Notes: generated by a model from the letters alone, not told the origin. A stretch of DNA of 64,000 bases from a virus (IMGVR_UViG_3300037258_001195:28988-92987); one strand, 5' to 3'. Shown: positions 35,164-54,956, counted from the stretch's first letter. Made by a program: numbers and translations.

Positions 35164-35742
35164 TTAGAGGTCCAGCGCGGCTGAGGTATCAGCGCTCTTG
35201 GCAACCCGCTTCTTCTTATCGGAAACGGGGCGGTTCGCGGAGGCCGCGATACCGGCGGTCACGAATTCCATGAACTTCCCGTCGTGGTGCTTGGCGATGG
35301 TGGCATCGATGATGGCTTGGTGGGCTTTCTTCGCAACGTCGTCGGATTTGGGATCGAGCGGGCGACGCTCGTTCACCATGTCCGCAACGGTGCTCGCGTA
35401 GTGGCGCTCAAAGGCGTCATTGCTGTTGGCGCCGGGGATACCCTCGCCAGCGGCCATTGCCTTATCGACCGTGGCCTGGACGTTCCCTTCGCCGTTCTGG
35501 ACGATCCTGTTCTGAACCATCTGGAGAACGCTCTGCGCGACGAAGGGGCGGATCGCCTCCGCGAGCGAACCAAAGCCGACGAGAGCGGGAACCGAGCAGA
35601 GAATACCGTTCGCGCCGACCCAAACCTTGCCGTCGTGGATGCGGTACTTGCGGGCGGAACAAGCGGAAAGCCAAGCGTCGTTGTCGGGATTGGTCTCGGC
35701 CTTGGAAAGCCGCTCGACGTTTTCGTGTGCCGTGTTTGCCAT
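35164..35742 (-). CDS. Monocistronic hypothetical protein ending ...SAALDL
   Basis: GAGG RBS; codon use typical of high expression; own terminator. Confidence 0.75.
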   Translation of the reverse strand: MANTAHENVERLSKAETNPDNDAWLSACSARKYRIHDGKVWVGANGILCSVPALVGFGSLAEAIRPFVAQSVLQMVQNRIVQNGEGNVQATVDKAMAAGEGIPGANSNDAFERHYASTVADMVNERRPLDPKSDDVAKKAHQAIIDATIAKHHDGKFMEFVTAGIAASANRPVSDKKKRVAKSADTSAALDL

Positions 35743-36199
35743 TTGAGTTGCCTCATAGGAGAGTTAGGAAAAGACAAACGCGGAAAGGATTGCCGAGTCC
35801 CGCAAAAGCACGAATGCTAATTGCAAGCTCGGCGTCGGGTTCTGTCCCGCCTATCGATGTTCCGCCCATCGATAGGAAATGTGTTGTTGATCCTTGGCCC
35901 TGGCGCGGCTGGTTACGGCTCCGGGGGCTGCTGGTTGCGTTCTATCCGTGTACGGAAAGCCTACATAGGCCGCTTGCGCGGTAGCGGAATTGAACCGCCG
36001 TAGGGAGAACGCTCCTATTGCTCGCGAGAGGCTTGGGCCTCTCGGTGGCGCAAGCGGTTTAACCAACCGCCTCGTTAACTAACCACAACCCCATAATACA
36101 CGATCCCGCGCGTGGTGCGAGAAAAATCGACCGTGATTTGGAGGAGATTTGTAACAATCTCGACCCTCGCGTAGGCGCGCGTGAAGCGGACTAAAGCGG

Positions 36200-36720
36200 A
36201 GCGAGGTCGGCGGGTTGTATGTCGCAGCCATCGCGAGGGTTGGGCATACAACACGCGCACGTCAACCCTCTCCCGCCCGCGCGCGAGTAATAGCCCGCGA
36301 TTTCCCAAGCAATAGCGCGTGATTTCCGCGTTGCGGACCAAATAATAGCGCGCGGGTTGGACAATAGCGAAAATCGTTACTGTTGCCATTCAAGATATAA
36401 GGTATGATAGCGTATGGAATAACGTATGGGTTACACCCGGTAGGTATATGCATGTACCCTGTAACGTTAACAATGAACATTTGGTCGAGATTATTCATGT
36501 TACAGAATAAAAAGTCCCCCTAGAAAAAATTAGACCCCGAAAAAAATTTTCGGTTGGGGTCTAATTTTCAAGAGGCATACAATAGTAACCTTATCACCGT
36601 TCACCTTACACCATATCTACACCACCTGTAACACATACGCTATCATACACCTTCACCCATACGCCTACCCCAACGCCTACCATAACGCCAACGTTATCAA
36701 TCCAACGCCCCCGCGCGAAT
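36200..36720. promoter_or_regulatory. Divergence region with nested inverted repeats (candidate origin/control region)
   Basis: AAAATTAGACCCC/GGGGTCTAATTTT, TATGATAGCGTATG/CATACGCTATCATA; gene orientation and strand skew switch here. Confidence 0.6.
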
Positions 36721-36771
36721 TTTCAGGTCGAAACACCAAACCCGACAAACCCCAAAACCAAGGAGCCAATC

Positions 36772-37437
36772 ATGCGAAACATCTTAAATCAAGAGCGGGT
36801 GTTAGTCCTAACTTCCGCCGGACTACGAATCCTAGACTCCTACCAACGTATAGAAAGCGCAATACAAGCATTCCGCGCTGCCGATGTCGACAGCGTATCA
36901 ACAGACGAACTATTGCACCTGCTCTCAATATACCGCCCAACCCTCGCGGATTGTCGCGCCCTTGTGAAAGAACACGATCATTTTACAATACACCAGAAAG
37001 CAAATCTGCGCACCCGCAAGGCAATGGCAAAATCTCGCCGCATTGCAAAAGGCATTTACGATTCCGAAGGAGAGCTACTAGAAGACGAAATCAGCGGCTT
37101 CTCAATAACCCTAGACTCACAAGCGAAGGCAATAATGACGGCGCCACTATCACGACAAGCTAAGAAAGAGGAGGAGAAATCCTTAATCCCCGAAACCGAG
37201 GATGGTTGGACCCTACCTCCCGCCGAAACCAGAACCATCGGCGATTATCATGAACTCCTACGCCGAGTCCACGGCGCAATATCAGTCTTCAAAATCACCA
37301 TCCACGAAACCTTCATCGCAAACGACCCGACAATAACCCCCGAGCAAACCCTGGAGGAGATAATCCCTGAGCTAGTCGAACAAGACTATCTCATGAAGAC
37401 GAACTACGAAAGCGCCTTTAGGATTATTGATAGATAA
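36772..37437 (+). CDS. Hypothetical early protein
   Basis: AAGGAG RBS; first ORF of the plus arm. Confidence 0.7.
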   Translation: MRNILNQERVLVLTSAGLRILDSYQRIESAIQAFRAADVDSVSTDELLHLLSIYRPTLADCRALVKEHDHFTIHQKANLRTRKAMAKSRRIAKGIYDSEGELLEDEISGFSITLDSQAKAIMTAPLSRQAKKEEEKSLIPETEDGWTLPPAETRTIGDYHELLRRVHGAISVFKITIHETFIANDPTITPEQTLEEIIPELVEQDYLMKTNYESAFRIIDR

Positions 37438-37438
37438 G

Positions 37439-37747
37439 ATGTCAGGAACCTCCCCAATGACAATCTTCACCTTTCCCTATGGAACAATCCTTGACAAAAC
37501 TCGAAACCAATGTGGAACAATACTAGAATGTCAACTCTACTACACAGACAATTGTCCCCTCTACTACACCCAAGCACATATAACATTCCGACGAATTCGA
37601 GTCCGGGCTGGAATCACAATCCCCAGCACATTTACAGTAGACTTTCTCATTAGAGATGAAAGAAACTTTCGCTTTCATTTCTGTAGACTAGATAAGAAAA
37701 ATGAAATTGTCTGTTTAAACTCAATTCCCGCCTATTGTAGGACATAA
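37439..37747 (+). CDS. Hypothetical protein
   Basis: AT-rich ORF. Confidence 0.4.
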   Translation: MSGTSPMTIFTFPYGTILDKTRNQCGTILECQLYYTDNCPLYYTQAHITFRRIRVRAGITIPSTFTVDFLIRDERNFRFHFCRLDKKNEIVCLNSIPAYCRT

Positions 37748-37890
37748 GGAGTAATTCACACCACAGGGAGTGTGCTATGCACTACACGCATAGCTATACC
37801 CCCATAAAAGCATAGCACCTGGTATGCCGCTTAGCATACAATGGGCTCGCGGAAGTCCGCCTGCACCACGCATCGGACCAAAAGGAAGGA

Positions 37891-38109
37891 ATGGCAATGG
37901 CCGTCAGAGTCGACAAATATAGCCCCAAGAGTCTTGCTGAATATGAAAAATACGGTCCCCAACGTCACGCGCGTTGGGCAGCAATGACACGTCAGCTTTT
38001 AGTACTCGCATGGGTGAATATGTATTACGGTACTGCCGAAGTTGTCTATTTCTTCAACGGCACATCGGCAGTGCGTCCGAAATACGGCAAGGATGGGGAG
38101 AGACTCTAA
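37891..38109 (+). CDS. Hypothetical protein
   Basis: AAGGAAGG RBS. Confidence 0.55.
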   Translation: MAMAVRVDKYSPKSLAEYEKYGPQRHARWAAMTRQLLVLAWVNMYYGTAEVVYFFNGTSAVRPKYGKDGERL

Positions 38110-38711
38110 TGGCCGTCGCCCAGATCATCCTCTTCCTCGATTCCGCCGGCACCATCCGCGCCGAAATGCCCGGACAAAATGGCAATCGGCAAAAAGTCGA
38201 ACTAAACTATGACTTCGCAACGCGAAACCCCGAAATCACGGCGTTGTTGCGGGACGAGCTTGATCGGCAAACCCGTCTCGCGGAAAAGATGGCGGACCTA
38301 AAAGCCCGCAACGCAGAAATTCGCGCAGCCGACGGGGCGATGGACCAAGTTGCATTGCGCCGCGCCCAACTAGCTGAAGACGCGCGCCGATGTCAGGAAT
38401 GGCTAGCATCGCTCGCTCCCGGTCGCAGGAAGATAGAAGAAGACAAACTAGATAAAAAACTCAAAGCGGCGGTCGATCGGGCAAATTCTGTCGCAAAAGG
38501 TCTCTATCACTACGTGGTCGAAAATCATGGCATTACGCTCGCCAAGCGCGTCATCCCTAACGCCGCGCGCCGACCGGGGAAGAAAATCTTAATCTCAACC
38601 ACAAATGGAATGAAAGAATTCTCGCCCCGTAAAGACGAAATCATCGAGACCAAATCCCCACGCGCGAAGCGAGTTGGCCCAATCGACCTTACTCTCGCAA
38701 TCGACCTCTAG
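38109..38711 (+). CDS. Hypothetical protein ending DLTLAIDL
   Basis: GGGGAG RBS; TAATG coupling. Confidence 0.7.
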   Translation: MAVAQIILFLDSAGTIRAEMPGQNGNRQKVELNYDFATRNPEITALLRDELDRQTRLAEKMADLKARNAEIRAADGAMDQVALRRAQLAEDARRCQEWLASLAPGRRKIEEDKLDKKLKAAVDRANSVAKGLYHYVVENHGITLAKRVIPNAARRPGKKILISTTNGMKEFSPRKDEIIETKSPRAKRVGPIDLTLAIDL

Positions 38712-38765
38712 CGAGCCCTTGCGAGGTCGGAATCAATCCCGAATCAGTCAACAGGACATCCCCAA

Positions 38766-39020
38766 ATGGACCCACAATCTTCCGGCGAACTAATCACATT
38801 CGTCGTGGCGCTGTATTTCATCCCCTCGATCATTGCCTTCGTGCGGGACGCAAAGAACAAAGCTGCAATCATTGTCCTAAACATCCTCACCGGCTGGACT
38901 CTTCTCGGCTGGTTAATCGCTCTGATTTGGTCCCTCGCAGCAGAGAAACGTAACGCGATGCGTCAGCTACGATCCGTCCCGAATCACTCATGTCCCACTT
39001 GCGGCGCAAAGCTAGTTTAG
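38766..39020 (+). CDS. Superinfection immunity protein (T4 Imm-like)
   Basis: LYFIPSIIA..R.....I.VLNILTGWTLLGWLIALIW; C-terminal CxxC. Confidence 0.85.
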   Translation: MDPQSSGELITFVVALYFIPSIIAFVRDAKNKAAIIVLNILTGWTLLGWLIALIWSLAAEKRNAMRQLRSVPNHSCPTCGAKLV

Positions 39021-39046
39021 ACCCCTAAAGGGAAGGAACCTGACTT

Positions 39047-39271
39047 ATGACCTTATATCAATTCCTAAACGGCACTCGTATTCTCTGGAACATCGGCGCT
39101 GACGAGTATCTATCTTGCATCAATCAAGAGGACCGAGATTATTTCGGGGATACTAAATTATGGAAAACGTTCCAGCAAGCTCCGCATAGAACATTCTCAG
39201 GTCTTCCTGACCAAGATCAACAACGAATCTTTACTTTAATCGAACGCCGCAACGCAAAAGTTGGACTCTAA
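39047..39271 (+). CDS. Hypothetical protein
   Basis: ORF with RBS. Confidence 0.55.
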   Translation: MTLYQFLNGTRILWNIGADEYLSCINQEDRDYFGDTKLWKTFQQAPHRTFSGLPDQDQQRIFTLIERRNAKVGL

Positions 39272-39289
39272 AAGAACAAGGCCACCCCC

Positions 39290-39514
39290 ATGTCCCAGTT
39301 CTCCCGCACCGATTACCTTTGGCTCGCCGATGCGTGGGCTGAAATAATCGCCAGCGAACCCCTAGCGACGGATCGCGCGGTTCTTGTCGAGGCGGCAGAG
39401 CGGTTCGCGGCTCTGCTGTCTCAGCAATCACCGACCGGATTTAACCCAAACCAATTCCTCGTAAACGTCACAATCGCATCCCGCAAGCGAAACCACTTAC
39501 CGGAAAGGACATAG
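39290..39514 (+). CDS. Hypothetical protein
   Basis: F...L....GFN..QF pattern seen in small phage proteins. Confidence 0.55.
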   Translation: MSQFSRTDYLWLADAWAEIIASEPLATDRAVLVEAAERFAALLSQQSPTGFNPNQFLVNVTIASRKRNHLPERT

Positions 39515-39516
39515 CA

Positions 39517-41007
39517 ATGGCTGGTCTTACAGAAAGCGTCATCGGCGCCAATCTAGAAGAGGAAATCACAGAGGATTTGCGTGTTAGCGGCATATCGCGT
39601 GAACGCTTTAATATAAGTCTTCTAGTTTCCCGACCGACATTTGCTTCCCAAATTATCCCAAAAATTCGCCAGTGGATGATCCTAAAGGGAATTCCAGAAA
39701 ACCGCGCTTGGGACGCCAGCGATTATGTCCTATGCAATGCCTTCTCCGCCGGCGATAGCTACCTGATGAGGATGCTTGAAAGCGACCTCATTAGGAAGCG
39801 AAAAAGAGCCCCGCGTGGTTTCGAGGGAATCGATCTCGACAAGCCAAACCCAATCGACCTCCTGAACAAAAATCTCGACGGCAGCGATCCCGCGCAAGCG
39901 AAAGCTGAAGTTCCCCCAGACAGTCCAAACCCGCTCCCCATCGACCCAAACTCAATCGCACAGGCAGCGGAAAAAGTCCTAAATCGCGCGTTAGAGTCCT
40001 ATCGCCGCGAGGCACAAAGCGCCCTGACCTCCGCTGCAAGCGGAATCCAAGATCGCCTTGGCGCCGCGCTTGACAGGCGTTGGACCGAAGCCCTCGTCAC
40101 ATTTGACGAAAAGACCAAGGACCTAGTCTCTGAGACAAAAACCCTGGTCCTCGAACTTGCGGCGAAACAAATTCCGCATGAAATCAACGTGCGGAAGGAC
40201 AACAAACTAATCACCCGTCTGCCGGCCGAAATTCGTCACGAAAGTTTCTCCCGAATCCTAAAATGGCTCCTAGTCGGCGAAAACGTCTATATCGTTGGCC
40301 CTGCAGGAACCGGAAAGACCCACCTCGCGAAGCAACTCGCAGCGGCTCTTGGCAAGGACCTATTCCTCCCCAGCCAAGCCCTGACGAAATACGACATCTC
40401 AGGCTATAAAGGCCCATCGGGAGAGTATTTTGGAACTTGCGTTCGGGACGCCCTGGAATTCGGCGGCCTGCTATTCGTCGACGAGGGTGATATGTGGGCC
40501 GCTGCCGCGCTCGGCTTCCTAAATGCCCCGCTCGCAAACGGCTGGTGCAGTTTTCCCGACAAAACAATCGCCGTCCACCCAGATTTCCAATGCATAATCG
40601 CGGCGAACACATTTGGACGTGGAGCCACCCAAGAATACATTGGGCGAAATCCCCTCGACGCAGCGAGCATTGACAGATTTGCCTTCGAAATCGTCGAGTA
40701 TGACGAAAACCTGGAAAAACTCCTCTACGGCAACGGTCCTTGGGTTCAGTACTGCCATCGAATTCGGGCTGCCGTCATCGAACTCAAACTTCGCCACATC
40801 ATCTCGATGCGGGCGATCAATCGAGTCCTACAGGGCATTCAGGCCGAACTCTCAGTCGACGAAGTTTGCTTCTCAGCTTTGTGGCGCGGCCTGGACAAAG
40901 ATACCATCACCAAAATCAAATCCATTGCCGGCGAACCCCCGAGGATCTTGCGAGTTGTCGAGGACGACGAGCCGGAAGATGAATTCCTAACTGGAACGGA
41001 CGAGTGA
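39517..41007 (+). CDS. MoxR/CobS-like AAA+ ATPase
   Basis: GPAGTGKT, LLFVDE, HPDF..IAANT.G.G, LDAASIDRF, ISMR. Confidence 0.88.
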   Translation: MAGLTESVIGANLEEEITEDLRVSGISRERFNISLLVSRPTFASQIIPKIRQWMILKGIPENRAWDASDYVLCNAFSAGDSYLMRMLESDLIRKRKRAPRGFEGIDLDKPNPIDLLNKNLDGSDPAQAKAEVPPDSPNPLPIDPNSIAQAAEKVLNRALESYRREAQSALTSAASGIQDRLGAALDRRWTEALVTFDEKTKDLVSETKTLVLELAAKQIPHEINVRKDNKLITRLPAEIRHESFSRILKWLLVGENVYIVGPAGTGKTHLAKQLAAALGKDLFLPSQALTKYDISGYKGPSGEYFGTCVRDALEFGGLLFVDEGDMWAAAALGFLNAPLANGWCSFPDKTIAVHPDFQCIIAANTFGRGATQEYIGRNPLDAASIDRFAFEIVEYDENLEKLLYGNGPWVQYCHRIRAAVIELKLRHIISMRAINRVLQGIQAELSVDEVCFSALWRGLDKDTITKIKSIAGEPPRILRVVEDDEPEDEFLTGTDE

Positions 41008-41008
41008 G

Positions 41009-41218
41009 ATGAGTCGGTATTACACCCCTCCTCGTCGACGTCATCCAGTCGATCGCGGAACCGAATTGCATCGTTGGACAATCCAAGTCCTTCACAGCCT
41101 AAATAACAACCGATCCTGGAAACGACATCCAGCCCCATTTGCAAAGCATCGCGCCGGAGAATTGCGCCGCGCGGGTCGACATCTCATTCTCTCAATCAAA
41201 TTGGGAGACTTCAGATGA
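41009..41218 (+). CDS. Small basic hypothetical protein
   Basis: Coupled between the AAA and vWA-like genes. Confidence 0.4.
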   Translation: MSRYYTPPRRRHPVDRGTELHRWTIQVLHSLNNNRSWKRHPAPFAKHRAGELRRAGRHLILSIKLGDFR

Positions 41219-42357
41219 GACGTTTCGCCAAAACCCGTCCGCCATTCACGTTTCAGAACCCACATCGCCGGCTCAAGAACCTCCTCGGGGAAAGCAACAT
41301 TGGACCGGGTGATCAGCTTTCCGACGAAACCGACGAGCGTCCTTGGGGTGATATTGACGAAAACCAAGAATCCGAAGCCGGCGACGCAAGCAACGAAAGC
41401 GATGAAGCTGACGCCACCGTCCCCGATGATGCGAGCGAAACCTCTGCCGAACTCACAGACACCACGTTGGAGGAATTCGAGTTAGACGAACCTCCAGCCC
41501 ATCTCGCGCGCCTGCCAGGTCTAATTCAAAATGACTCCAACGCAGTTATTCGGGAATTTCATTCTTTCTCCGAATTTGTCGAAACTGCCGCCCGCGATGA
41601 CCTCTATGCGTGGAAATGGGTTAAACTCTCCCACGCCCTAGGCAACGGCGGGGGACACATGGGATCAGGAACAAACTCTTTTGACGAAGCCCTTAAACTT
41701 GCGCGGTTTGGCTGGCCTGAAGGGCGAAAACTAATGTCCGAGAGCCTAGCTCTAATCATCCCCCGTCCAGAACCGTTCCGAAGCCAAATCTACGACGTTG
41801 GTGGCGCATATCCAATAGTCCCGATCGCGATCACCGGCGACCCCGCGTGCATGGTGGATTTCTACAACGCCAACATTGCAACGCAGCCCATCGTGCGAAT
41901 CGATCAAAACATCCGCGCCTCTTGGAACGTCGAGCCGGAAACCATGATGACTCACGGCGCGGCGGTTTTAAGTCTAGTATCCGATCTAGAGGCTCGTGGG
42001 TATTCGGTCGAATTGCGAATTTTCGAGCACAATCATTGCATTGCCAGAGGACCGAACCTAATCTGGTCCGCAATATACAAACGGGCCGGAGAGCTACTGG
42101 ACCTAGATCGCGCCGCTTTCGCCCTGGCGCACCCTGCTGTCCTACGTCGCTTCGGCTTCACAATGCGCGAACAATCTCCGGAGCTTGAGCGAGGATACAG
42201 CGCCGAATATGGGTTTGAGACCAACAAGCCCATCGACCTCAACGTCATAACCATCCCGCCGGTGTCAAAGGGCGAAACTCCCGAACGCGCCCGAGAGATT
42301 GTCCAAAAAGCCGCCGCCGACTTCCTCACCAACTCAAACCTGGAGAACGCAGCATGA
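41215..42357 (+). CDS. vWA-like partner of the AAA+ ATPase
   Basis: Acidic linker, A..GWPEG, GDP.CM, AF.LAHPA.LRR; adjacent to the AAA gene. Confidence 0.6.
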   Translation: MRRFAKTRPPFTFQNPHRRLKNLLGESNIGPGDQLSDETDERPWGDIDENQESEAGDASNESDEADATVPDDASETSAELTDTTLEEFELDEPPAHLARLPGLIQNDSNAVIREFHSFSEFVETAARDDLYAWKWVKLSHALGNGGGHMGSGTNSFDEALKLARFGWPEGRKLMSESLALIIPRPEPFRSQIYDVGGAYPIVPIAITGDPACMVDFYNANIATQPIVRIDQNIRASWNVEPETMMTHGAAVLSLVSDLEARGYSVELRIFEHNHCIARGPNLIWSAIYKRAGELLDLDRAAFALAHPAVLRRFGFTMREQSPELERGYSAEYGFETNKPIDLNVITIPPVSKGETPERAREIVQKAAADFLTNSNLENAA

Positions 42358-42587
42358 CGCGCAGCGAGCTAAATGACAACAAGCGAAAGAAAACCCGCCT
42401 AGTCGACGTCCCAACGAAAGCTGTCGTTGTCGCATTCTCAATACGAGTGCCAACTTCAATGCGCCACGATAAAATCGCCGCCTATATACGAACAGCAGTG
42501 ATGTCGGAAGCTGGAAACTATCCCCCTGGAGAAAACGAATATTACGTCACCATCAACAAAGACAGAATAGAGATATTCATGCCATGA
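42354..42587 (+). CDS. Hypothetical protein
   Basis: ATGA coupling. Confidence 0.5.
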   Translation: MTRSELNDNKRKKTRLVDVPTKAVVVAFSIRVPTSMRHDKIAAYIRTAVMSEAGNYPPGENEYYVTINKDRIEIFMP

Positions 42588-42766
42588 GCAAGTCAAGACT
42601 AGAATGCCCAAAGTGCTCCTGTCCTCGTGTAGAAGTCCAAGTCATTGCCTGGTGGGCATATACCAATGCGATTTCACAGGGACAAGGAGATGATTATATC
42701 GAAATCAAAGATGACGGATACGCGATCTGTCAGGAATGCAGCCATCAATGGCGAACGCAATCATGA
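42584..42766 (+). CDS. Zinc-ribbon protein
   Basis: CPKC...CQEC. Confidence 0.55.
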   Translation: MSKSRLECPKCSCPRVEVQVIAWWAYTNAISQGQGDDYIEIKDDGYAICQECSHQWRTQS

Positions 42767-42948
42767 GCGAATCCCCAACTATTTGGCCGCAACTAGCAAT
42801 GGCAGGTTTATGGACATTAAGCCTCGGCATGTCCATAGCTAAGCATGGTCAACCGAGAGACCCTGAAAACGCATGGATAACACTAACTGCAATCATCCTA
42901 TCCGCAACAATCCTATACTTCGGCAACTTCTGGAGCAATATCCTATGA
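42763..42948 (+). CDS. Small two-TM membrane protein
   Basis: WPQ..HGQPR..LYFGNFW. Confidence 0.55.
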   Translation: MSESPTIWPQLAMAGLWTLSLGMSIAKHGQPRDPENAWITLTAIILSATILYFGNFWSNIL

Positions 42949-43358
42949 GCAAAATCCTCGAACTTCCAATCGTCGGAATCTTCCACCATCCGCCCGCAAT
43001 GGTGCTGGTCAAGATCATTCCCCTCAACGCGAACCTTTGGCTTCGGGGCGAGCCGGAAAATCGCTACGACTCCAACGCAATCGCCGTCGACCTCGACATC
43101 GACCTCCTGAACCTGCTCAATCGCCCGGATCGAAAAAACGAATTCCAACATGCCTTCAACTCCTATCGCGAACGTCATCCCGACGGGCCGGATTTCGCCG
43201 ACGTAATGGCTTGCGGTCGATTTCACCTCGGCTACCTAGCAGCCGTGTATGCTAGTCAAATCGTCGCCGATCCTCGCTGGACTGGAAACGTCCCCGGTAT
43301 CCTTCGGTTCGATGCGAAAGCCAAACCCCTAGTTAAGTTCGAGCTAAAAGGGCTCTAG
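42945..43358 (+). CDS. HIRAN domain protein
   Basis: IVG..H, L..EPEN.YD.NAIAV, LGYL. Confidence 0.8.
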   Translation: MSKILELPIVGIFHHPPAMVLVKIIPLNANLWLRGEPENRYDSNAIAVDLDIDLLNLLNRPDRKNEFQHAFNSYRERHPDGPDFADVMACGRFHLGYLAAVYASQIVADPRWTGNVPGILRFDAKAKPLVKFELKGL

Positions 43359-43515
43359 GCAATGCCAGACTATAAACAGCTCCTAACCGAACTGACAGCA
43401 GCTATAACAGAGGTCATTAATGCCGACGAATTACCAAAGGTAACTATACGTAACATACGATTGTGTGCCATTTTAGCCACAGTTACTACAGTCTTACAAA
43501 AGGAAACTTTATGTA

Positions 43516-43755
43516 ATGAACGATGATCTCGAAATTCACCCCGCGCCGCGAAAATACGACGTCCTTTCGATCTTTCGCTTACCGGCCTTCTGGCGGGGCG
43601 CGCAAACAACCCGACGAGAAATGCACGATTTCCGTCCCATGGGTGACTTAGGAATTCTTGAAAAGAAAACCCTCTTAGGTTTCGACCCAGAAACGCTACC
43701 CGAATTCCACCGCTGGCTTGGCCAAAGCACCAGCCCCAAAGGAACACCATCATGA
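43516..43755 (+). CDS. Hypothetical protein
   Basis: ORF in the early operon. Confidence 0.45.
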   Translation: MNDDLEIHPAPRKYDVLSIFRLPAFWRGAQTTRREMHDFRPMGDLGILEKKTLLGFDPETLPEFHRWLGQSTSPKGTPS

Positions 43756-43908
43756 TCGACGATGATCTGGACCTAGAAGAGCAAGTTGAACTAAATCGGC
43801 TCGGCATCGTCATCCTCCGCAGCGCGCAGATTGCGGGTGCAATTGTCCTATTCCTTGCCGCCACGCTGGCGTGGCACCTAAATAGCATCTGGTAGGGGCG
43901 CAGTCGCA

Positions 43909-44205
43909 ATGACCATACACGAAATCCTAATTGCCGCGAAAGCGCTGATCCCGGACGAGGAACATTGGTGGCGCGGTTCACACATCAGTGGTCCACGTTG
44001 GGACGATTGTTGCTGTCCGGTGATCGCAATGCATGAAGCTAGCGGCGCTGCAACAGACGCGTGGATGCGCGCGTGTGACCTGTTCGATGAGATCATTGGG
44101 GGCCGGGCGGCATCGTGGAATGACGATCCCTCTCGTACCTTTGCCGAAGTTCACGCCGCGTTCGACCGTGCCATCGAGGCAACCCGGCCACGAGCTCAAT
44201 CCTGA
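43909..44205 (+). CDS. DUF6197-like protein
   Basis: WNDDPSRTFAEVHAAFDRAI. Confidence 0.65.
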   Translation: MTIHEILIAAKALIPDEEHWWRGSHISGPRWDDCCCPVIAMHEASGAATDAWMRACDLFDEIIGGRAASWNDDPSRTFAEVHAAFDRAIEATRPRAQS

Positions 44206-44223
44206 CAAAAAGGAACCAAACCA

Positions 44224-44793
44224 ATGACCGAGACCTCTCCAAGTCCTTTCGCCCGCTCTTGCGGCGCCTGTAATGTCTGCTGCACCGCGCTCGGCGTAGA
44301 GGAACTCAAGAAATACCCCGCAACGCGCTGCGACTACTTACGGACTTCCGCAAACCAATCTCATAAATGTTGCGCGATTTACGATACCCGACCAACCGCT
44401 TGCGCGCGATTCCATTGCGCTTGGATCGAAGGACTTGGAAACCCCCTCGTGGGCCGACCCGACCGCAGCGGAATCATGATAGTAGTCTATCCCGGCGAAG
44501 ACAGCCCGGCGCCTTCCGCCGTCGTCACAATCATCGACCCACGCCGTTCCGGTAGCCTTAGCGACCAGAGCAGCCAGCTCTACAGCTTCACAATGCAGTT
44601 GCTGCAATTGGGCTTCATGGACATAAAGATCATCAATCGCGCAATAGGCAGCGTCATTTACATCAAGGATGGTCTCGCCTACACCGGCCACCTAGCCCCA
44701 CAAGAAGGCTACGAAGACCTGAAATTCACAATCCTAGACCCACCAATTGGAAAAATCGAAACCCAAGAGGAACCTTCCAATGTCAACCAGTGA
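44224..44793 (+). CDS. YkgJ / CxxCxxCC cysteine-cluster protein
   Basis: CGACNVCC..C.YL...CAIYDTRPTAC..FHCAW..RPD. Confidence 0.8.
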   Translation: MTETSPSPFARSCGACNVCCTALGVEELKKYPATRCDYLRTSANQSHKCCAIYDTRPTACARFHCAWIEGLGNPLVGRPDRSGIMIVVYPGEDSPAPSAVVTIIDPRRSGSLSDQSSQLYSFTMQLLQLGFMDIKIINRAIGSVIYIKDGLAYTGHLAPQEGYEDLKFTILDPPIGKIETQEEPSNVNQ

Positions 44794-45091
44794 TCACGTT
44801 CTCGAACTCGTCCAGGCAATGAATCGCGCCAAACAACAGCAGGAAACCGACGAGGACAAAGTCGTCTCGGACAAAATCGCCGGCATCTGCCAAAGATATC
44901 TCGACTTGATAAATTCCGAGCTAACCGACGGCGACGAGATAAATGGAATTGTCCATATCCATATGCTTGCCCTAGCGGTTAGCCTCGTCAAGAAGAAAAT
45001 ACCCTACCAGGGGGCAATCACAATTGGACTAGAAATCGGTTCTACCCTTTTGAATAGAATTGACACCGTTTATAGGGAATGTCAGAAATGA
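44780..45091 (+). CDS. Hypothetical protein
   Basis: GAGG RBS. Confidence 0.55.
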   Translation: MSTSDHVLELVQAMNRAKQQQETDEDKVVSDKIAGICQRYLDLINSELTDGDEINGIVHIHMLALAVSLVKKKIPYQGAITIGLEIGSTLLNRIDTVYRECQK

Positions 45092-45429
45092 CCCACGAAG
45101 AATTCCTCGCCCTTCCAGCAATTAACGAAACCCTGATTCGCCAGTATTTCGACCGAGGCGAAATCGACAACCTAATTCGGGTTATGGACTTCTTGTTTCG
45201 CCAGAAATCGCGAGCGGAGATGCTGGCGCGGGCATATTTGGCCCAGAATGAGGTGCTGCGCCAACGGCTTGAGGTGCTGAGAGCGGGGGCGAGTGAGCCC
45301 AGCCTGCCAGCACCACGCCAACGCACCAGCACCACAGCGGCCCCCACGCGCCAGCCAGCCACCCCCAAACAACCCTCCGCGGCGGCGGCGGCGAAAACCC
45401 CCGACCTCTCCTTAGCACTTGACCTTTAG
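45079..45429 (+). CDS. Hypothetical protein ending DLSLALDL
   Basis: ORF; start may be 45088. Confidence 0.65.
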   Translation: MSEMTHEEFLALPAINETLIRQYFDRGEIDNLIRVMDFLFRQKSRAEMLARAYLAQNEVLRQRLEVLRAGASEPSLPAPRQRTSTTAAPTRQPATPKQPSAAAAAKTPDLSLALDL

Positions 45430-45440
45430 GAGAATGTATT

Positions 45441-45629
45441 ATGAAAATAAGTATCGAACTATCAGAAGAAAACATTCGCCAGATATTAGCAGACTATCTA
45501 AATGAAAATTACCACACAAACCTATCAGGAGATTCTATAGTTATAGAAGTCAAATCCAAGCAAAATTATCGTAGCGAATGGGAACGTGCAAGTATTCGAA
45601 TTAAGCAGGAGATTATCCCTCGACAATAA
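45441..45629 (+). CDS. Small AT-rich hypothetical protein
   Basis: AGGAG RBS. Confidence 0.6.
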   Translation: MKISIELSEENIRQILADYLNENYHTNLSGDSIVIEVKSKQNYRSEWERASIRIKQEIIPRQ

Positions 45630-45632
45630 TCT

Positions 45633-45690
45633 ATTGTATGCCCAATACACGCTACGGCTTGTATGCCTAACGTATGCCCTTGTATGCCAA
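45633..45690. promoter_or_regulatory. Intergenic GTATGCC x4 repeat element, copy 2
   Basis: TTGTATGCC at 45634, 45659 and 45680; CGTATGCC at 45671. Confidence 0.6.
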
Positions 45691-45714
45691 CCCAAACAAA
45701 GGTAAACTCCTCAA

Positions 45715-46059
45715 ATGCCCGCAACCCCTCCCGACGAAACCGAGATGCGTCTAGTCCGCAGCGCCTACAACACCGCAGGCGGAATCCTGACAATCCCAAT
45801 GGCCGACGGAAGAATCGCAATCTACACCCGGCAGAGTCACTTTCATTCCATTGTCGAAAGCCTCGAAGAGATAGACCTAATCGCTATCAATTCCGAATGC
45901 AAGAGAATCGACCATTGGAACGGAAAAATTCGCTCCGCCGCGCGGTTCTACGGTGAGCCAGACGATAAGAACCTTGCCCGCGACCTTCGACGAGAACGGG
46001 CGCCAGTGAGAACTCGACTAACCCAAGCCGCTATCGACGACCTCGCAATCGATCTCTAA
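45715..46059 (+). CDS. Hypothetical protein ending DDLAIDL
   Basis: ORF. Confidence 0.65.
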   Translation: MPATPPDETEMRLVRSAYNTAGGILTIPMADGRIAIYTRQSHFHSIVESLEEIDLIAINSECKRIDHWNGKIRSAARFYGEPDDKNLARDLRRERAPVRTRLTQAAIDDLAIDL

Positions 46060-46071
46060 GGAACCCTCTCT

Positions 46072-46365
46072 ATGCCAATCGAAACAATAGAAAAGCCGAT
46101 GACCTTCGACGAATGGGTGATCGCGGAGTCGCGAAAAACCGCATCGGACGTAATTGAGGCCGAGCTCGAAAAGCAAGGTCTCCCACTCCCAAAGGACTCT
46201 GCGCTCGACGCCCACATCGACGCCCTATTGGCGAGCCGGCCCGATATCCTAGACTCAGCACGCGCCCGCGTCGAGGCAAAGAGCGACGCATATTCCGCCG
46301 CCCTTCGAGCAATCGGCATCACGCCAATTTTAATCGAAGCCCTGGACCTAGACATCGATCCATGA
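46072..46365 (+). CDS. Hypothetical protein ending ALDLDIDP
   Basis: AAGGA RBS. Confidence 0.65.
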   Translation: MPIETIEKPMTFDEWVIAESRKTASDVIEAELEKQGLPLPKDSALDAHIDALLASRPDILDSARARVEAKSDAYSAALRAIGITPILIEALDLDIDP

Positions 46366-46378
46366 CGCGCCGCGAGAG

Positions 46379-46654
46379 ATGCTGCGAGAAATGGGGACTA
46401 AAATGAGCCTCCAAAGCGATATCGCGATCCAAATCCTCCGCGCTGCGAGCCAGACCCCCCTCGGCGTCCGTGTGAAGATCACGGCGATTTCTCCCGACGT
46501 AATCATGCCGCCTCTCCGCGCCAAGGGACTTCTCTACGCGGCGAAGAAAATCAATTCCGAGTTCGCGAACCTAACTGTCCGATTTGATCCGATCGACCCC
46601 GAAAACTATCTATGGATCCATCCGATGAAACCGGAAGACGAGATCGACCTATGA
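46379..46654 (+). CDS. Hypothetical protein ending DEIDL
   Basis: ORF; start may be 46403. Confidence 0.6.
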   Translation: MLREMGTKMSLQSDIAIQILRAASQTPLGVRVKITAISPDVIMPPLRAKGLLYAAKKINSEFANLTVRFDPIDPENYLWIHPMKPEDEIDL

Positions 46655-47001
46655 CCGAAATCCTCAACGCAAGAATTAAATCCACCACGCTCGGCGTCGA
46701 AGATCATGGAATTATGACCTTCTTCGTATTCATCGAGTGGCCCGGCGCCGGATGCGGACTAGGTGGCTATGCCCTCGACGCACGGGAAAACGGCAAGCCT
46801 TGCGGCGGATCAGGACATGCCTACCAGGCAATTCGCCAAATTCTCGAAACCGTTGGCGTGGATAAATGGGAAAAATTGCCCGGAACTCTAATTCGCATCG
46901 TGCATCCCGGACTGGGACGAGGCCTGACAAAAATCGGCCACATCCTCGACGACAAATGGTTCGACATTGAGGATTGGATGAAACAAGAGGACCATCCCTA
47001 A
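46651..47001 (+). CDS. Conserved phage hypothetical protein
   Basis: NARI.ST.LG.EDHG..GGY.LD..VGV..WE.L.G..IGH. Confidence 0.65.
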   Translation: MTEILNARIKSTTLGVEDHGIMTFFVFIEWPGAGCGLGGYALDARENGKPCGGSGHAYQAIRQILETVGVDKWEKLPGTLIRIVHPGLGRGLTKIGHILDDKWFDIEDWMKQEDHP

Positions 47002-47243
47002 TGCCTGCAAAATCCGCTGAACCCCTAGTTCGCCTCTGCGTCAGAATTCGAGAAGCAGACGACAATATCCTCGAAGAAATGTGCGCCCTGCAAAAAGTCG
47101 GGAAGAACCGTCTCATCCGGGAGATGATTCGATCTTACGTCGCCCAATCATCCGCGCTCGTCCGACGCAACATCGACCGCATCGAGCCAATGAAACAAGA
47201 GGACCCCGACACAACACAGGTGCGGGAGACAGAGAATGTCTGA
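47001..47243 (+). CDS. Ribbon-helix-helix-like protein
   Basis: VRLCVRI..D...L.....N.LIR..I..YV. Confidence 0.5.
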   Translation: MPAKSAEPLVRLCVRIREADDNILEEMCALQKVGKNRLIREMIRSYVAQSSALVRRNIDRIEPMKQEDPDTTQVRETENV

Positions 47244-47550
47244 CCTCAAAGTCGGCCTCCAGCAAACCCCCGGCGAACAATCGGACCTAGAAGCCGAGTT
47301 AATCGCAACTAGTCCGCTTCGCGCTGTCGATCCAGCCTCGATCGACGAACTCCTCGAACGAGTGAACGAACATCTAATTGCCGGCGTCCCAAACAAACTT
47401 CGCGAAAACGACGACGAGCTTTTGCGAAGACTCGTTGACGGCTTTCGTCGCGAGGCAATCGATTGGGCCACCGCAGAGCGGACCAAAAAGCCACGCGCCC
47501 CCCGAGGGGAGAAGAAAGCAGTCGACCTCAACCTGGCGATGGACCTCTAG
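47236..47550 (+). CDS. Hypothetical protein ending DLNLAMDL
   Basis: GGGAG RBS. Confidence 0.65.
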   Translation: MSDLKVGLQQTPGEQSDLEAELIATSPLRAVDPASIDELLERVNEHLIAGVPNKLRENDDELLRRLVDGFRREAIDWATAERTKKPRAPRGEKKAVDLNLAMDL

Positions 47551-47553
47551 ACG

Positions 47554-48507
47554 ATGCCCGAGACCAACAAAGCCTTCTCAACGAAATTCCCGAAGCTCCA
47601 GACCGCGTGGGACTCAACGAGCTTCAATTGCCTCGATAAATGTCCCCGCTACTATCAACTCTCAATCATCGAAGGTTATTGCGGCTCTGGTCCCCCGAAC
47701 GACAATCTTCTATTCGGCTTTCTCTGGCACGCCGCCGAGGAGACTTATCAACACCAGCGCGCGCAAAACGTCGACCACGAAAGTGCTGTTCGCCACGTCG
47801 TGTATTGCCTTTTAGTAAATACCTGGGACTTTATTCGCGCTCGCCCCTGGATGAGCGGCGAGCCAAACAAGACCCGAGAAACCCTTCTGCGAACAATCAT
47901 CGTCTATCTAGATCATTATGAATTCGATCCACTCAAAACGGCAATCCGCGCAGACGGAATTCCGATGGTCGAGGTTAGCTTTCGCTTCGACCTGACCGAC
48001 ATTGACGAAACCTTCGCCGCCCCCGACGGAACCAGCTATATGCTATGCGGGCATCTGGACAAAGTTGCAGATTGGAACGATGAGTATTGGATCATCGACA
48101 AGAAATCCACCAAATACGAACTTAACGAGGATTACTTCAAGCAATTCCTTCCCGACAATCAAATGTCCATTTACGCCATTGCCGGCCAAGTAGTTTTGTC
48201 CAAGCCGATTCGCGGCGTGATAATCGACGCCGCCCAGATTCTTGTCAATGGAACCCGACTTCGTCGCCGCCCGACACCCCGAGAACCACCGCAGCTCTCT
48301 GAATGGCTAACCGACTTTCAAATGAAACTTCGCGAGAACGAAAGCTACGTCGCCAATGACTATTGGCCCCAACGGCCACAAAGCTGCGGCTATGGTCGAA
48401 TGCAATGTCTCTTCCGACCTGTTTGTTCCGCTGAGCCCGAGGCGCGACAGGAGATGCTAGAGAACTTCTACGGTCGCCGCACTTGGGACCCACTTACTCC
48501 GAGGTGA
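47554..48507 (+). CDS. PD-(D/E)XK exonuclease (RecB/Cas4-like)
   Basis: CPR.Y, G..WH, E, GHLD, IIDKKS, Q...Y, C...C...C. Confidence 0.85.
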   Translation: MPETNKAFSTKFPKLQTAWDSTSFNCLDKCPRYYQLSIIEGYCGSGPPNDNLLFGFLWHAAEETYQHQRAQNVDHESAVRHVVYCLLVNTWDFIRARPWMSGEPNKTRETLLRTIIVYLDHYEFDPLKTAIRADGIPMVEVSFRFDLTDIDETFAAPDGTSYMLCGHLDKVADWNDEYWIIDKKSTKYELNEDYFKQFLPDNQMSIYAIAGQVVLSKPIRGVIIDAAQILVNGTRLRRRPTPREPPQLSEWLTDFQMKLRENESYVANDYWPQRPQSCGYGRMQCLFRPVCSAEPEARQEMLENFYGRRTWDPLTPR

Positions 48508-48509
48508 AA

Positions 48510-48731
48510 ATGTCAGACGTGATTTGCCGACTTCCAAATGGATGCACATTATATAAAGAACGCAACGGGGTAGGAGGACATAGATATTGGTCAGACGAAG
48601 TTGGTGGTGGTGTCATGATATGGGATACTTGTCTAGTTGATCCAACAACATTGCTAACTGCAATAGTCGAAGAACATAAAGCAATGCTAGAGGGAAAACT
48701 AAATCCTACAACCTTTGATCTAAAGGAATAA
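48510..48731 (+). CDS. AT-rich hypothetical protein
   Basis: GAGGTG RBS. Confidence 0.55.
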   Translation: MSDVICRLPNGCTLYKERNGVGGHRYWSDEVGGGVMIWDTCLVDPTTLLTAIVEEHKAMLEGKLNPTTFDLKE

Positions 48732-48737
48732 CAAAAG

Positions 48738-49778
48738 ATGCCCAGCCTCCTAGACCAAACCTCCGAATCTGCCAAAATCCTCTACGTGGGTGATTCCGGA
48801 CATGGAAAAACCGGCTCCAAAGCTGCCTTAGTCGCAATCGGCTATAAGCTTCGCATGGTCGACACTGACAACGGATTTAAAATCCTCCGCAGCCTCTTGA
48901 CCGACGACGAACACTACCCCTATGCAAGCTGGATGAAAAAGGCTGGAATCGACCCGACCGAACCGGGCCGAATCAGCTATATCCCCATCGACGTCCCAAT
49001 CGACGTCCAAGATCGAAACGTGCAACGAAAGTCCGGGAATGTCTCCTATTCCGTCCTCGCCCCTGCCAGCTCGCGAGCCTGGAACACCGTCGTCAATCTC
49101 CTCAACAAAGGTTGGATCGACGACGGCAAAAATCTCGGCCTAATCACGGACTGGGACAACGACACAATCCTAGATTTCGACACCCTTTCGTCGCTTGCCG
49201 AACTCGCCCACTACTGGAACCAAGACATGAACGGCCGCCTTGGCGCCCTAGAGGACGATCATGGTCGCGACGCCGGGGCGGCGCAGGAACTAATCCGCCG
49301 CCTCATGCTCAAACTAACCTCTCCGACCGTCCGATGCAACGTAATCGTCACAACCCACATCACCTGGACCGACGTCTCACGGGGCGCGGCCCTCAGCCCG
49401 CGGCAGTTGATGGAGGACAAAAAGCCGGTCGAACTTCGTGGCTTTCCATCCGTAATTGGTCGCGCCCTCGGGCCGGTCCTCGGAAAGCGGTGGAACGACC
49501 AGTTCATCTGCGCCCGCGACGGAGACGGACGAAACGCCACTCGCCGAATTTATTCCGTCCCAACCAACAACGTCGACGCTAAACACTCGGCCTGGGTAGA
49601 AGACTCATACCCGGTCGAAACTGGCCTGGCGTCGATCTTCTCGGCCCTTCAGTACAAGCCGGTTCCGACAGAATTTCTCGAACACGTTGCTGCGTTCAAC
49701 GCTGCGCGCAGCGACACAAGCCCTACGGAAAGCCCCAGCGGGAGCAAATCAAACCCCTTTGGTGGCTTTGGTAGATAG
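48738..49778 (+). CDS. AAA_24 / Sak4-like ATPase (single-strand annealing)
   Basis: ILYVGDSGHGKT, D.DNG, DTLS, NVIVTTH; lies between the exonuclease and SSB-like genes. Confidence 0.75.
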   Translation: MPSLLDQTSESAKILYVGDSGHGKTGSKAALVAIGYKLRMVDTDNGFKILRSLLTDDEHYPYASWMKKAGIDPTEPGRISYIPIDVPIDVQDRNVQRKSGNVSYSVLAPASSRAWNTVVNLLNKGWIDDGKNLGLITDWDNDTILDFDTLSSLAELAHYWNQDMNGRLGALEDDHGRDAGAAQELIRRLMLKLTSPTVRCNVIVTTHITWTDVSRGAALSPRQLMEDKKPVELRGFPSVIGRALGPVLGKRWNDQFICARDGDGRNATRRIYSVPTNNVDAKHSAWVEDSYPVETGLASIFSALQYKPVPTEFLEHVAAFNAARSDTSPTESPSGSKSNPFGGFGR

Positions 49779-49825
49779 GAAGGGGAATTCTCCCCAGCCT
49801 AGTTTAAACAGAGGACTTTAAAACA

Positions 49826-50320
49826 ATGGCTGACGAACCTGTTGATTTTCGTGACCTGCTCTCGAAGCCCCTCGGCGATTTTCCCGACCGGCCCAACCTT
49901 CCCGGCGCAAAGTCGTTCTACGGGAAGCTCCTATCACTTGGCGCGGGAGTCTCCGCGCAGAAAGGCACGCCGCATTTCCGCTTCACGGTCCGCCTCACCG
50001 ACGGCGGCCAGGATGTAAAGTCGACGGACCTGGAAAAGATCGCTGCGGCGGGATTTTCGCTCGCCGACTATGAGGTCTACTCCGACTTCTGGCTTACCCC
50101 CAATAGTATGCCGATGCTTCGCAGCTTCCTCGTCTCCCTGGGCTTCCCCGAAAACGCGACCTTCAAGGAAGTCCTGAAGCTCAACGACTTCGGCGAGCCA
50201 ACCTCGGACTCACAGGAAGCCATTCGCGGCCTGGACGTTATTGTCCGAACCCAGAATGCCGACGAGAACGGGCGCGTGTACGCGAAGCTCGACCGGATCG
50301 CTGGGAAGAAAAGCAGCTAA
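49826..50320 (+). CDS. SSB-like protein (DUF669-like)
   Basis: RP.LP, S.QKGTP, FWLT..S..ML..FL; follows the Sak4-like gene. Confidence 0.55.
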   Translation: MADEPVDFRDLLSKPLGDFPDRPNLPGAKSFYGKLLSLGAGVSAQKGTPHFRFTVRLTDGGQDVKSTDLEKIAAAGFSLADYEVYSDFWLTPNSMPMLRSFLVSLGFPENATFKEVLKLNDFGEPTSDSQEAIRGLDVIVRTQNADENGRVYAKLDRIAGKKSS

Positions 50321-50408
50321 GAAACCTAAGAGGCGCAGGCGGAAGGAGATCGGAGTTTCAGCTCTAATCTTCCTCCGCCGCGCACAATTCCTACGAGGAC
50401 AAACCCCA

Positions 50409-50678
50409 ATGCCCAAATCCAAAGACATAACCCGACTCGTCCCGCGAAACATAGACCAAGATGAATCCAAGTCTGATCGATTTCGCCGCCTCGCGAACCA
50501 GCGATTTCGAGTCCTAAAGGCCGCCATGACTCGTATGGGGCGCCTCAGCGGACCATCCTACGACGCCTCAACCGAACAGATCGACAAACTCATCGAGGCC
50601 CTAACGAGAGAGTTCGACTTCATGATCGCCCAATTGCATCGGAAGGTGGACAGCGACGCCCCCGACGATCTTTTCTAG
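50409..50678 (+). CDS. Small helical hypothetical protein ending DDLF
   Basis: ESK.DRF.RLA..R pattern; GAGG RBS. Confidence 0.65.
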   Translation: MPKSKDITRLVPRNIDQDESKSDRFRRLANQRFRVLKAAMTRMGRLSGPSYDASTEQIDKLIEALTREFDFMIAQLHRKVDSDAPDDLF

Positions 50679-54723: not shown

Positions 54724-54727
54724 ATAA
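54674..54727 (+). pseudogene. Orphaned 3' end of the UDG-exo gene (EISWKQMRRGETLKRDE*)
   Basis: 15/17 aa identical to 54087-54140. Confidence 0.85.
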
Positions 54728-54956
54728 AATGAAAAATTGGCTAAAATTTGAATATGGTACGTATATAAATGGAATAGAATGGAAGACGGAAGGAATGGTA
54801 TACATAGACCCGGCAGCTATATCTTCAGTTATGGAAATATCACGACACTTTCCAAATGCGACAGGCTGTTGTATATATTTAGGATATTCAGGCAAACAAT
54901 ACGCTGTTCGCGAATCCATCAGCGCTGTTATGGCTGAAATTCAGTCCGCACTTTAG
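54720..54956 (+). CDS. Small hypothetical protein (FlbD-like pattern)
   Basis: VYIDP..ISSV.E...V.ES...V. Confidence 0.5.
   Translation: MNKMKNWLKFEYGTYINGIEWKTEGMVYIDPAAISSVMEISRHFPNATGCCIYLGYSGKQYAVRESISAVMAEIQSAL

Follow-up and report, generated by a model that had tools for sequence, protein, structure and literature searches.

What would make seven proteins of one virus, unrelated in their bodies, end in nearly the same few residues? The question is raised by a 64,000-nucleotide (nt) stretch of viral DNA (IMGVR_UViG_3300037258_001195:28988-92987; hereafter, the window), the right-hand part of a 92,987-bp provirus record (G000) that lies on a 220-kb contig, in which small proteins encoded between positions 35,164 and 50,678 share an acidic-hydrophobic C-terminal tail. 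Based on how the tail is distributed and conserved here and in related genomes, it is likely to be a docking tag of some kind.

A common C-terminal tail on unrelated proteins

In the window, the tail takes the form x-L-A-[ILM]-D-L and is often doubled as D-L-x-L-A-x-D-L. More generally it reads hydrophobic-[D/E]-hydrophobic-x-[L/I/F], at or near the C-terminus and usually behind a flexible K/R-rich linker. Five open reading frames (ORFs) of the window end in A-[ILM]-D-L, three of these with the full D-L-x-L-A-x-D-L. Across the ~29,650 positions of the 139 genes called in the 92,987-bp record, A-[ILM]-D-L occurred seven times, and five of the seven were exact C-termini against 0.009 expected (Poisson P = 6e-13, for a motif defined after the fact). 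The DNA pattern for D-L-x-L-A-x-D-L followed by a stop was found three times, compared with 0 in 100 shuffles.

An earlier note, made from the sequence alone, had quoted these C-termini, and every one was recovered where it had been placed. It had also described the protein bodies as unrelated, which the comparisons bear out: with the tails removed, no pairwise similarity was detected (BLASTP best E = 1.3), and no family was matched when the bodies were searched against Pfam and PHROG. The tails are encoded by differing codons, their stop codons differ too, and the versions are conserved as peptides in orthologues, all in line with the proposal of that note that selection acts on the peptide. 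The basic tract that it reported in front of the motif holds for the set in general, with 4.3 K/R residues at positions -26 to -7 in 44 tail carriers vs 2.5 in 434 other genes (P = 2e-9), but the tract is absent from the families at 46072 and 46379 (families F and G below).

The seven tail carriers of the window were assigned to families A to G. Family A (35164..35742, minus strand, 192 amino acids (aa)) is the first gene of the leftward packaging/late operon and ends in ...KKKRVAKSADTSAALDL, a basic tract followed by AALDL. The other carriers are on the plus strand. Family B (37974..38711) ends in KRVGPIDLTLAIDL; its true start is probably the ATG at 38109 (200 aa) and not the TTG at 37974, with GGAG located 9 nt upstream of that ATG and the alignment of orthologues starting there. 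Family C (45079..45429, 116 aa) ends in AKTPDLSLALDL, the last residues being LALDL, and family D (45715..46059, 114 aa) ends in AAIDDLAIDL. Family E (47236..47550, 104 aa) ends in KKAVDLNLAMDL, and its stop lies 3 nt before the PD-(D/E)XK nuclease gene. Two cases that had been listed as weaker, family F (46072..46365, 97 aa), whose EALDLDIDP is a variant tail with a terminal Pro, and family G (46379..46654, 91 aa), whose EDEIDL follows an acidic and not a basic linker, are true members because canonical tails are present on their orthologues elsewhere. The membership of a further ORF (50241..50678, plus strand), with the full ending DSDAPDDLF, is uncertain; no relatives were found in 81 related loci, and its APDDLF resembles the EDLF/EDIF version of locus L094. 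This ORF overlaps the gene of a 164-aa protein, and DSDAPDDLF resembles the tip of a single-stranded DNA-binding protein (SSB).

Tail versions in related genomes

Related genomes were reached through the PD-(D/E)XK nuclease, whose profile retrieved 80 related viral loci, while a query with the nuclease sequence alone retrieved none. Four of the closest relatives were taken in full (G001, G002 and G003 are complete, G004 is ~55% complete), and orthology of families A to G was assigned by BLAST and tblastn. A scan of genome contigs gave a single match, one contig of a Saccharibacteria metagenome-assembled genome, and no host clue.

Each of the closest relatives has its own tail version on 4-10 proteins. 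The version is AIDIDL in G001 (5 carriers), LDLDL in G002 and G004 (4 carriers), [VIA][LVM][DE][IL] in G003 (10 carriers), I-[DEA]-I-[TD]-L in G010 (5-7 carriers), where T often replaces the last acid (IDITL), and [IV]-[DE]-I-[DE]-L in the contigs of L021, L023 and L116 (6-7 carriers). Enrichment at C-termini across related phages, a check that the earlier note had suggested, was observed in five genomes with P from 3e-7 to 4e-38. For comparison, 13 related loci that have no multi-protein tail set, six being complete genomes, were scanned as well, and the generic pattern ended 1 of their 467 genes.

The tails are conserved among orthologues, and families A to G recur in the relatives carrying the local version, except that the G003 orthologue of family G is tail-less. 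Orthologues of family A end in AVMEL (G003), VEIEL (L114/L116) or IAITL (L112), and those of family B in VVLEI (G003) or AIEIDL (the L023 contig). For family C the endings are AAIDIDL (G001), QVLDI (G003) and VIDIDL (G010). Family D has QAIDIDL (G001), QVLDI (G003), VIDITL (G010) and a sub-terminal AIDIDLDSLL (L021/L023). Family F orthologues have a common ...ALRAIGI... and end in PIDIDL, QVLDI, AMDLDL, AVDIDL or AIEITL, and those of family G end in IIPIDL, EVEIDL or QVIDITL. Family E is the most widely sampled: a hydrophobic-D/E-hydrophobic element falls within the last 16 residues in 48 of 53 representatives, while the sequence of the motif varies widely, with endings ranging from IIDITL to AVDLEF and MVELEF and with sub-terminal copies in G001 (QAIDIGDLFQ) and G002 (VLDLDDLDFDAPASEQ).

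The version is a property of the genome and not of the protein family. Among 28 family-by-genome tails, the identity of the last five residues was 0.63 for different families in the same genome, compared with 0.36 when the family was shared but the genome was not, and 0.35 for pairs sharing neither (permutation P < 1e-4). Within one version, synonymous codons vary and all three stop codons are used, so the uniformity is that of a peptide and not of DNA.

The local version is also carried by mobile elements. Four homing endonucleases, spread over three genomes, close with the version found where they reside: an HNH enzyme in G001 (AIDIDL), an HNH enzyme in G004 (ILDLDL), and in G003 a LAGLIDADG enzyme (IVLDI) and an EndoVII/HNH-like enzyme (SVLEI). 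The window homologue of the G001 HNH enzyme (54133-54723) is tail-less. Because mobile elements acquired the local version, it can be argued that the tag pays within its genome.

The MoxR-type ATPase and the candidate receptors

A further copy of the tag lies inside a protein. The window encodes a MoxR-type AAA+ ATPase (AAA_5, CobS-like; 39517..41007, plus strand; Pfam AAA_5 4.4e-6, phrog_249 1.4e-43), and its AlphaFold2 (AF2) model (predicted local distance difference test score, pLDDT, 88.7 overall) begins with a confident helical bundle, the N-domain (residues 1-93), which a disordered linker (pLDDT 37-58) joins to a long helix and, beyond it, the AAA+ core. The linker contains an internal tag copy, RKRKRAPRGFEGIDLDKPNPIDLL (residues 93-116; 39793..39864, plus strand). 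In the alignment of AAA_5 proteins, a conserved N-terminal domain is followed by a K/R tract and then by a motif that matches the version of the same genome. Thus RKRKRAPRGFEGIDLDKPNPIDLL in the window stands beside tails of the form x-L-A-[ILM]-D-L, RRRTSAAIDIGD in G001 beside AAIDIDL and QAIDIGDLFQ, ...GRNDVLDLDS in G003 beside QVLDI, ...GRPIDIDLDLL in G010 beside VIDIDL and IIDITL, ...KSQDINIDLDD in L021 and L023 beside [IV]-[DE]-I-[DE]-L, and ETDIFSTDD in L094 beside EDIF and EDLF. The basic tract and matching motif were found in the ATPase linker of 8 lineages, plus most (about 25) of ~30 cluster representatives with the N-domain. A GFG element precedes the motif in many ATPase linkers. 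In the AF2 monomer the internal motif is not docked in cis, at low confidence, which does not tell which protein is the receptor. An atlas search with the ATPase N-domain returned nothing usable.

The gene next to the ATPase encodes a DUF7192 protein (41215..42357, plus strand; Pfam DUF7192 1.4e-27) with an acidic disordered N-terminus and, in its AF2 model (pLDDT 79.8), a VWA-like fold. [quoted passage not shown] The two genes thereby form an AAA_5-type ATPase with an adjacent VWA-domain partner, that is, a MoxR AAA+/VWA pair, the VWA fold being that of the model. Across 56 DUF7192 sequences the canonical MIDAS DxSxS is not conserved (D230 is 68% conserved, with no SxS after it); the invariant residues are GWPEG, K289, D296, D298, R299, R311 and R312. 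A DUF7192 profile found no relative among PDB sequences, and no literature on DUF7192 was found. Members are spread over 187 Staphylococcus phage records, 63 Mycobacterium phage records (including Faith1 and Rumpelstiltskin), and Rhizobium, Clostridium and Tunturiibacter phages; a CobS-like ATPase adjoins DUF7192 in both phages inspected, Tunturi_4 and Rhizobium phage RHph_X2_24.

Long poly-acidic N-terminal regions are a feature of the ATPase partners. In G001 (L016:688-3725), a CbbQ/CobS-like ATPase core and a CobT_C VWA partner (4e-51) replace the AAA_5/DUF7192 pair, and the same N-terminal helical domain and linker motif are retained despite the swap of core and partner. The CobT-type partner has an intact MIDAS start (DNSGS at 249). 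An N-terminal piece that acts as a recruiting module would fit this swap.

The N-extended AAA_5 protein, with a VWA or VWA-like partner, was present in every genome with a multi-protein tail set (G000-G003, G010 and the L021, L023 and L116 contigs); L094 and L079 have two tails each. AAA_5 was absent from eight complete or near-complete relatives. No such tails were detected in 28 viral loci with an AAA_5 protein that lacks the N-extension, nor in two cultured phages with AAA_5 and DUF7192 (Tunturiibacter phage Tunturi_4 and Rhizobium phage RHph_X2_24), in which alone among the loci without the N-extension the DUF7192 partner is confirmed. Because AAA_5 without the N-extension goes without tails, the association is with the N-extended, motif-bearing ATPase and not with the MoxR/VWA pair as such.

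Family E reaches beyond this association. A profile of its body alone recovered 50 ORFs in more distant loci, including five complete genomes without AAA_5. These ORFs lie just upstream of the nuclease, and their basic linker leads into an acidic-hydrophobic motif, as in ...KGPILSADDLLKDIDLNF, ...PGLSLDDLGL and ...ISADELLSDILGD. A reader of at least the family E tail should therefore exist without the MoxR/VWA pair, since the family is tailed in genomes lacking AAA_5.

The reading that we favour brings these observations together. The shared ending would be a short linear docking motif, selected as a peptide, that links a variable group of proteins to a single common receptor differing between phage lineages. 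Tagged proteins would include small ones made early, the one that opens the late operon, the homing endonucleases residing in the genome and, via its internal copy, the MoxR AAA+ ATPase. As family E keeps its linker and tail without the MoxR/VWA pair, the receptor would be a third party present throughout the phage group, and a fast-evolving, phage-encoded receptor is favoured because the tail versions are genome-wise. The favoured candidates are the PD-(D/E)XK nuclease, the AAA_24 ATPase, the 164-aa possible SSB and the split family-A polymerase. The same tag may bring the MoxR/VWA pair to that receptor, where it would perhaps remodel or exchange bound clients. The ATPase is probably a tagged client rather than the reader, because its N-terminus, a small helical domain with a basic linker and then the motif, has a client-like build and because of the swap in G001.

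This whole reading, with a docking motif, a phage-encoded third-party receptor in the replication/recombination module and the ATPase as a client, is a serious possibility that falls somewhat short of an even chance. Several observations weigh against it. The core replication proteins do not have this tail and show other conserved endings (KRDE in the UDG/Exo protein, GFG[KR] in AAA_24), and the K/R-rich linker beside the motif is ill-suited to a basic docking patch of the T7 kind. In addition, all conserved replication proteins occur both in genomes with and in genomes without large tail sets, so that none stood out as the receptor.

The earlier note had proposed a docking code that recruits phage effectors to one hub. 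Comparison strongly supports the code, through the conservation in orthologues, the uniformity within and difference between genomes, and the copies on homing endonucleases and in the AAA+ ATPase; for the hub there are candidates. For one hub that it named, the phage AAA+/VWA machine, the link to the system holds, but its features suit a tagged client better than the reader.

The genes named as candidates lie in one region. A divergent region splits the leftward packaging operon (family A, a TerS-like gene and TerL) from the rightward early operon, and the tails sit in the early/replication part. The rightward operon runs from the AAA_5 MoxR-type ATPase and DUF7192 through the small tailed genes to the PD-(D/E)XK nuclease, the AAA_24 ATPase and the 164-aa protein, which are followed by a ParB-methylase, HNH genes, the UDG/Exo protein, a dCTP-deaminase-like protein, PolA, DUF3987, a dNMP kinase and a class II ribonucleotide reductase. 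The conserved 164-aa protein (within 49826-50678 of the window) follows AAA_24 and ends in a basic KKSS, with no acidic tail. Profile searches of this protein against PDB and Pfam gave only DUF669 at E = 0.06, in one member; by gene position only, it is a possible SSB. In L024-L095 the nuclease ends in V-R-G-D-[IV], an ending that is lost in the clade of the window, where it is PLTPR; other conserved endings there are [KR]-[KR]-D-[DE] in the UDG/Exo protein, GFG[KR] in AAA_24 and LFDDPDFDF in one 137-201 aa protein. The 92,987-bp record has two structural gene sets (G000:5081-19657 and 1038-29208 of the window), each like the single set of G003; examples are a pair of portal-like genes and a protein present twice, at 54-60% identity to G003 53614-54936. 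The doubled sets may reflect two tandem prophages or a large duplication.

Competing explanations and known docking systems

The peptide could be non-functional, arising from chance, from common ancestry of the 3' ends or from a DNA or RNA signal over the gene ends. The nonamer GACCTCTAR does occur 3 times vs 0.5 expected, and a DNA-level signal would explain a KAKEAKP ending in locus L161, if that is read as a ribosome-binding site with an ATGA overlap. However, neither the codons and stop codons nor the distance to the following gene is constant, the exchanges between D and E and among I, L and M are conservative ones for the protein, and the motif is kept across versions that have nothing in common in DNA. 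The exact D-L-x-L-A-x-D-L-stop pattern gave 15 scattered singletons in IMG/VR, unclustered and at chance level. This explanation is largely refuted, and we regard it as barely credible. Specific forms of it were also rejected: a ribosome-binding site or translational coupling, for there is no consistent Shine-Dalgarno sequence in the tails and the gap before the following start can be as short as 3 nt or hold a terminator, and gene conversion between 3' ends, which is unlikely given the synonymous differences across ~15 nt. A virion-packaging signal is disfavoured; G001 and G002 have the system and share only TerL and a small neighbouring protein of the structural genes, while G000 and G003 share structural genes yet differ in version. 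Alternatively, there might be no dedicated receptor, the alternating tails pairing mutually or with the basic linkers to form one assembly or condensate. The alternation of hydrophobic-D-hydrophobic-D-L suits an amphipathic beta-strand, a basic tract adjoins the acidic motif, and homotypic pairing would also yield uniformity within a genome; yet a motif of just 4-6 residues, with positional preferences as sharp as a terminal L, I or F by lineage, and the lack of a basic tract in families F and G make such pairing highly improbable. A tag that governs degradation or stability, recognised by a protease or adaptor of the host or phage and shortening the life of early proteins and toxic nucleases, would suit the carriers, as early proteins and homing endonucleases could plausibly be short-lived, and the tag is terminal and exposed behind a flexible linker. 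Nevertheless, a free C-terminus is not required, for conserved copies are found at internal or sub-terminal positions (in the ATPase linker, as AIDIGDLFQ in family E of G001, as VLDLDDLDFDAPASEQ in that of G002, and as AIDIDLDSLL in L021/L023). The tails end in D-L, D-I or E-I, with no characteristic degron end residues, versions differ between close relatives, and a degron of its own is unexpected on an essential-looking ATPase. The tail is not known to resemble the ClpX signals of the LAA (ssrA) or RRKKAI (MuA) type. A protease as the hub, which the earlier note had also listed, is weakened by the functional-looking internal and sub-terminal copies and now appears very unlikely. The same internal copies argue against the need for a free carboxylate in a PDZ class II ligand (hydrophobic-x-hydrophobic-COOH), which the tail sequence fits, and no PDZ domain was found in the five tail genomes searched.

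Two other readers deserve more weight. One is the host beta sliding clamp, with the tail as a clamp-binding peptide without Gln that places small proteins, the MoxR ATPase and nucleases of the phage on DNA-loaded clamps or blocks host clients. Clamp-binding motifs include QLVLGL of Pol IV, QLSLPL of Hda and QVELEF of Pol III alpha. Like the clamp motifs QL[SD]LF and QLxLxL, the tails have hydrophobic-x-hydrophobic-x-[LF] in disordered regions, terminal or internal, on nucleases and other DNA enzymes. The hydrophobic residues at positions 2, 4 and 6 of the C-terminus (x-L-A-[ILM]-D-L, A-I-D-I-D-L, L-D-L-D-L) fit Q-L-x-L-x-[LF], the family E endings M-V-E-L-E-F and A-V-D-L-E-F fit the hexapeptide motif, and L-S-L-D-D-L cores occur in more distant relatives; the clamp-type spacing is also present in L-A-[ILM]-D-L, I-D-I-D-L, L-D-L-D-L and V-E-L-E-F, and the ATPase copy lies in a disordered linker. 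Internal copies are normal among clamp motifs. A search of the tail genomes detected no phage-encoded clamp, and a universal host hub would explain the family E tail across the whole phage group. On the other hand, the defining Gln is absent, position 1 being D, A, S, N, P or G in the tails of the window and of relatives, and the hydrophobic residues of the G003 version [VI]-[LM]-[DE]-I fall in a different register. Given how strongly bacteria conserve the clamp pocket, versions that switch jointly, genome by genome, would be unexpected unless the hosts differ widely, and T7-type polymerases need no clamp. The clamp thus appears unlikely, though it is a real contender. The other reader, a VWA partner, was our first preference. 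Here the tails would be captured by the VWA-like partner or the ATPase ring of the phage MoxR AAA+/VWA machine, and the proteins that bear them would be remodelled by the ATPase. The restriction of multi-protein tail sets to genomes with the N-extended AAA_5 and a VWA or VWA-like partner supports this, as do the VWA/MIDAS-type fold of DUF7192 and the intact DNSGS of the G001 partner; the poly-acidic N-terminal regions of the partners could attract the basic linkers. Like ligands of VWA MIDAS sites (integrin LDV/RGD, and Rsa4/Ytm1 at the Rea1 MIDAS), the tail has a hydrophobic-acidic-hydrophobic core, here beside a MoxR/VWA pair. In MoxR/VWA machines, the target supplies an acidic ligand at the MIDAS, and the NorD C-terminus docks on the postS1 loops of NorQ (PMC13036017; bioRxiv 10.64898/2026.10.09.757910). 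Unlike in those systems, DUF7192 has no conserved DxSxS, and family E is tailed in genomes without the pair, the observation that led us to downgrade this reader. Moreover, G001 has a non-orthologous core and partner and yet nearly the version of L021/L023, similar DUF7192 proteins accompany different versions, such tails are missing from the 28 viral loci and the two cultured phages that have AAA_5 without the N-extension, and in the model the ATPase does not dock its own motif in cis. We consider this reader quite improbable.

The docking tag proposed here can also be set beside peptides of cultured phages. In phage T4, the C-termini of gp43, gp33 and gp55 bind the gp45 clamp, as the polymerase tail does in RB69, so that unrelated proteins with a common hydrophobic/acidic peptide dock on one hub. 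Similarly, several unrelated proteins share one terminal peptide here (seven in the window, 4-10 per relative). Unlike in T4, however, no clamp was found in the genomes, the carriers are many more and mostly small proteins, the versions are genome-specific, and there are a basic linker and an internal copy in a MoxR ATPase. The acidic tails of T7 gp2.5 and gp4, which dock on gp5, belong to a family-A polymerase replication module as well and have a hydrophobic end beside acidic residues, and more distant relatives here end in ...D-L-N-F or ...DFDF. In contrast to T7, the tails have 1-3 acidic residues, an aliphatic end and a preceding run that is basic, and the carriers are accessory proteins rather than a helicase or a confirmed SSB.

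Other recurrent endings were seen in the related loci. In L161:13349-19824 (IMGVR_UViG_3300027956_000020), and also in L162 and L163, the ending ...K-A-K-E-A-K-P is shared by some ten small ORFs of one strand. Our guess is that this ending encodes a Shine-Dalgarno sequence and an ATGA stop/start overlap, in which case it would be a DNA-level contrast to the tail described here. In L118 (Tunturiibacter phage Tunturi_4, PP885687.1), at least 8 of ~60 annotated proteins near the CobS-like/DUF7192 pair end in -AA (for example, EESAAA, LEEAA, LRTAA and KFAA), which could be another terminal signal or a composition effect.

Literature searches on shared phage C-terminal motifs, phage MoxR/VWA proteins and DUF7192 gave no description of this system. 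Tentatively, and with more doubt than belief, it may be a genome-wide address-tag system based on a short, fast-evolving peptide, whose local version incoming homing endonucleases would have to adopt and in which a tagged MoxR/VWA machine, recruited to the receptor or itself the reader, loads, exchanges or removes tagged proteins. If so, viral CobS/CobT-like gene pairs would have a functional role of a new kind. The docking peptides of T4 and T7 cover only a few core replication and transcription proteins, whereas here a whole set of small proteins is tagged. The uptake of the tag by homing endonucleases suggests a route by which mobile elements adapt to their resident genome. DUF7192, present in Staphylococcus and Mycobacterium phages, is given a model-based fold assignment here, and the widespread MoxR/VWA (CobS/CobT-like) genes of phages are linked to concrete candidate partners. 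Through the tag itself, experiments could reach many phage genes that at present offer no other way in.

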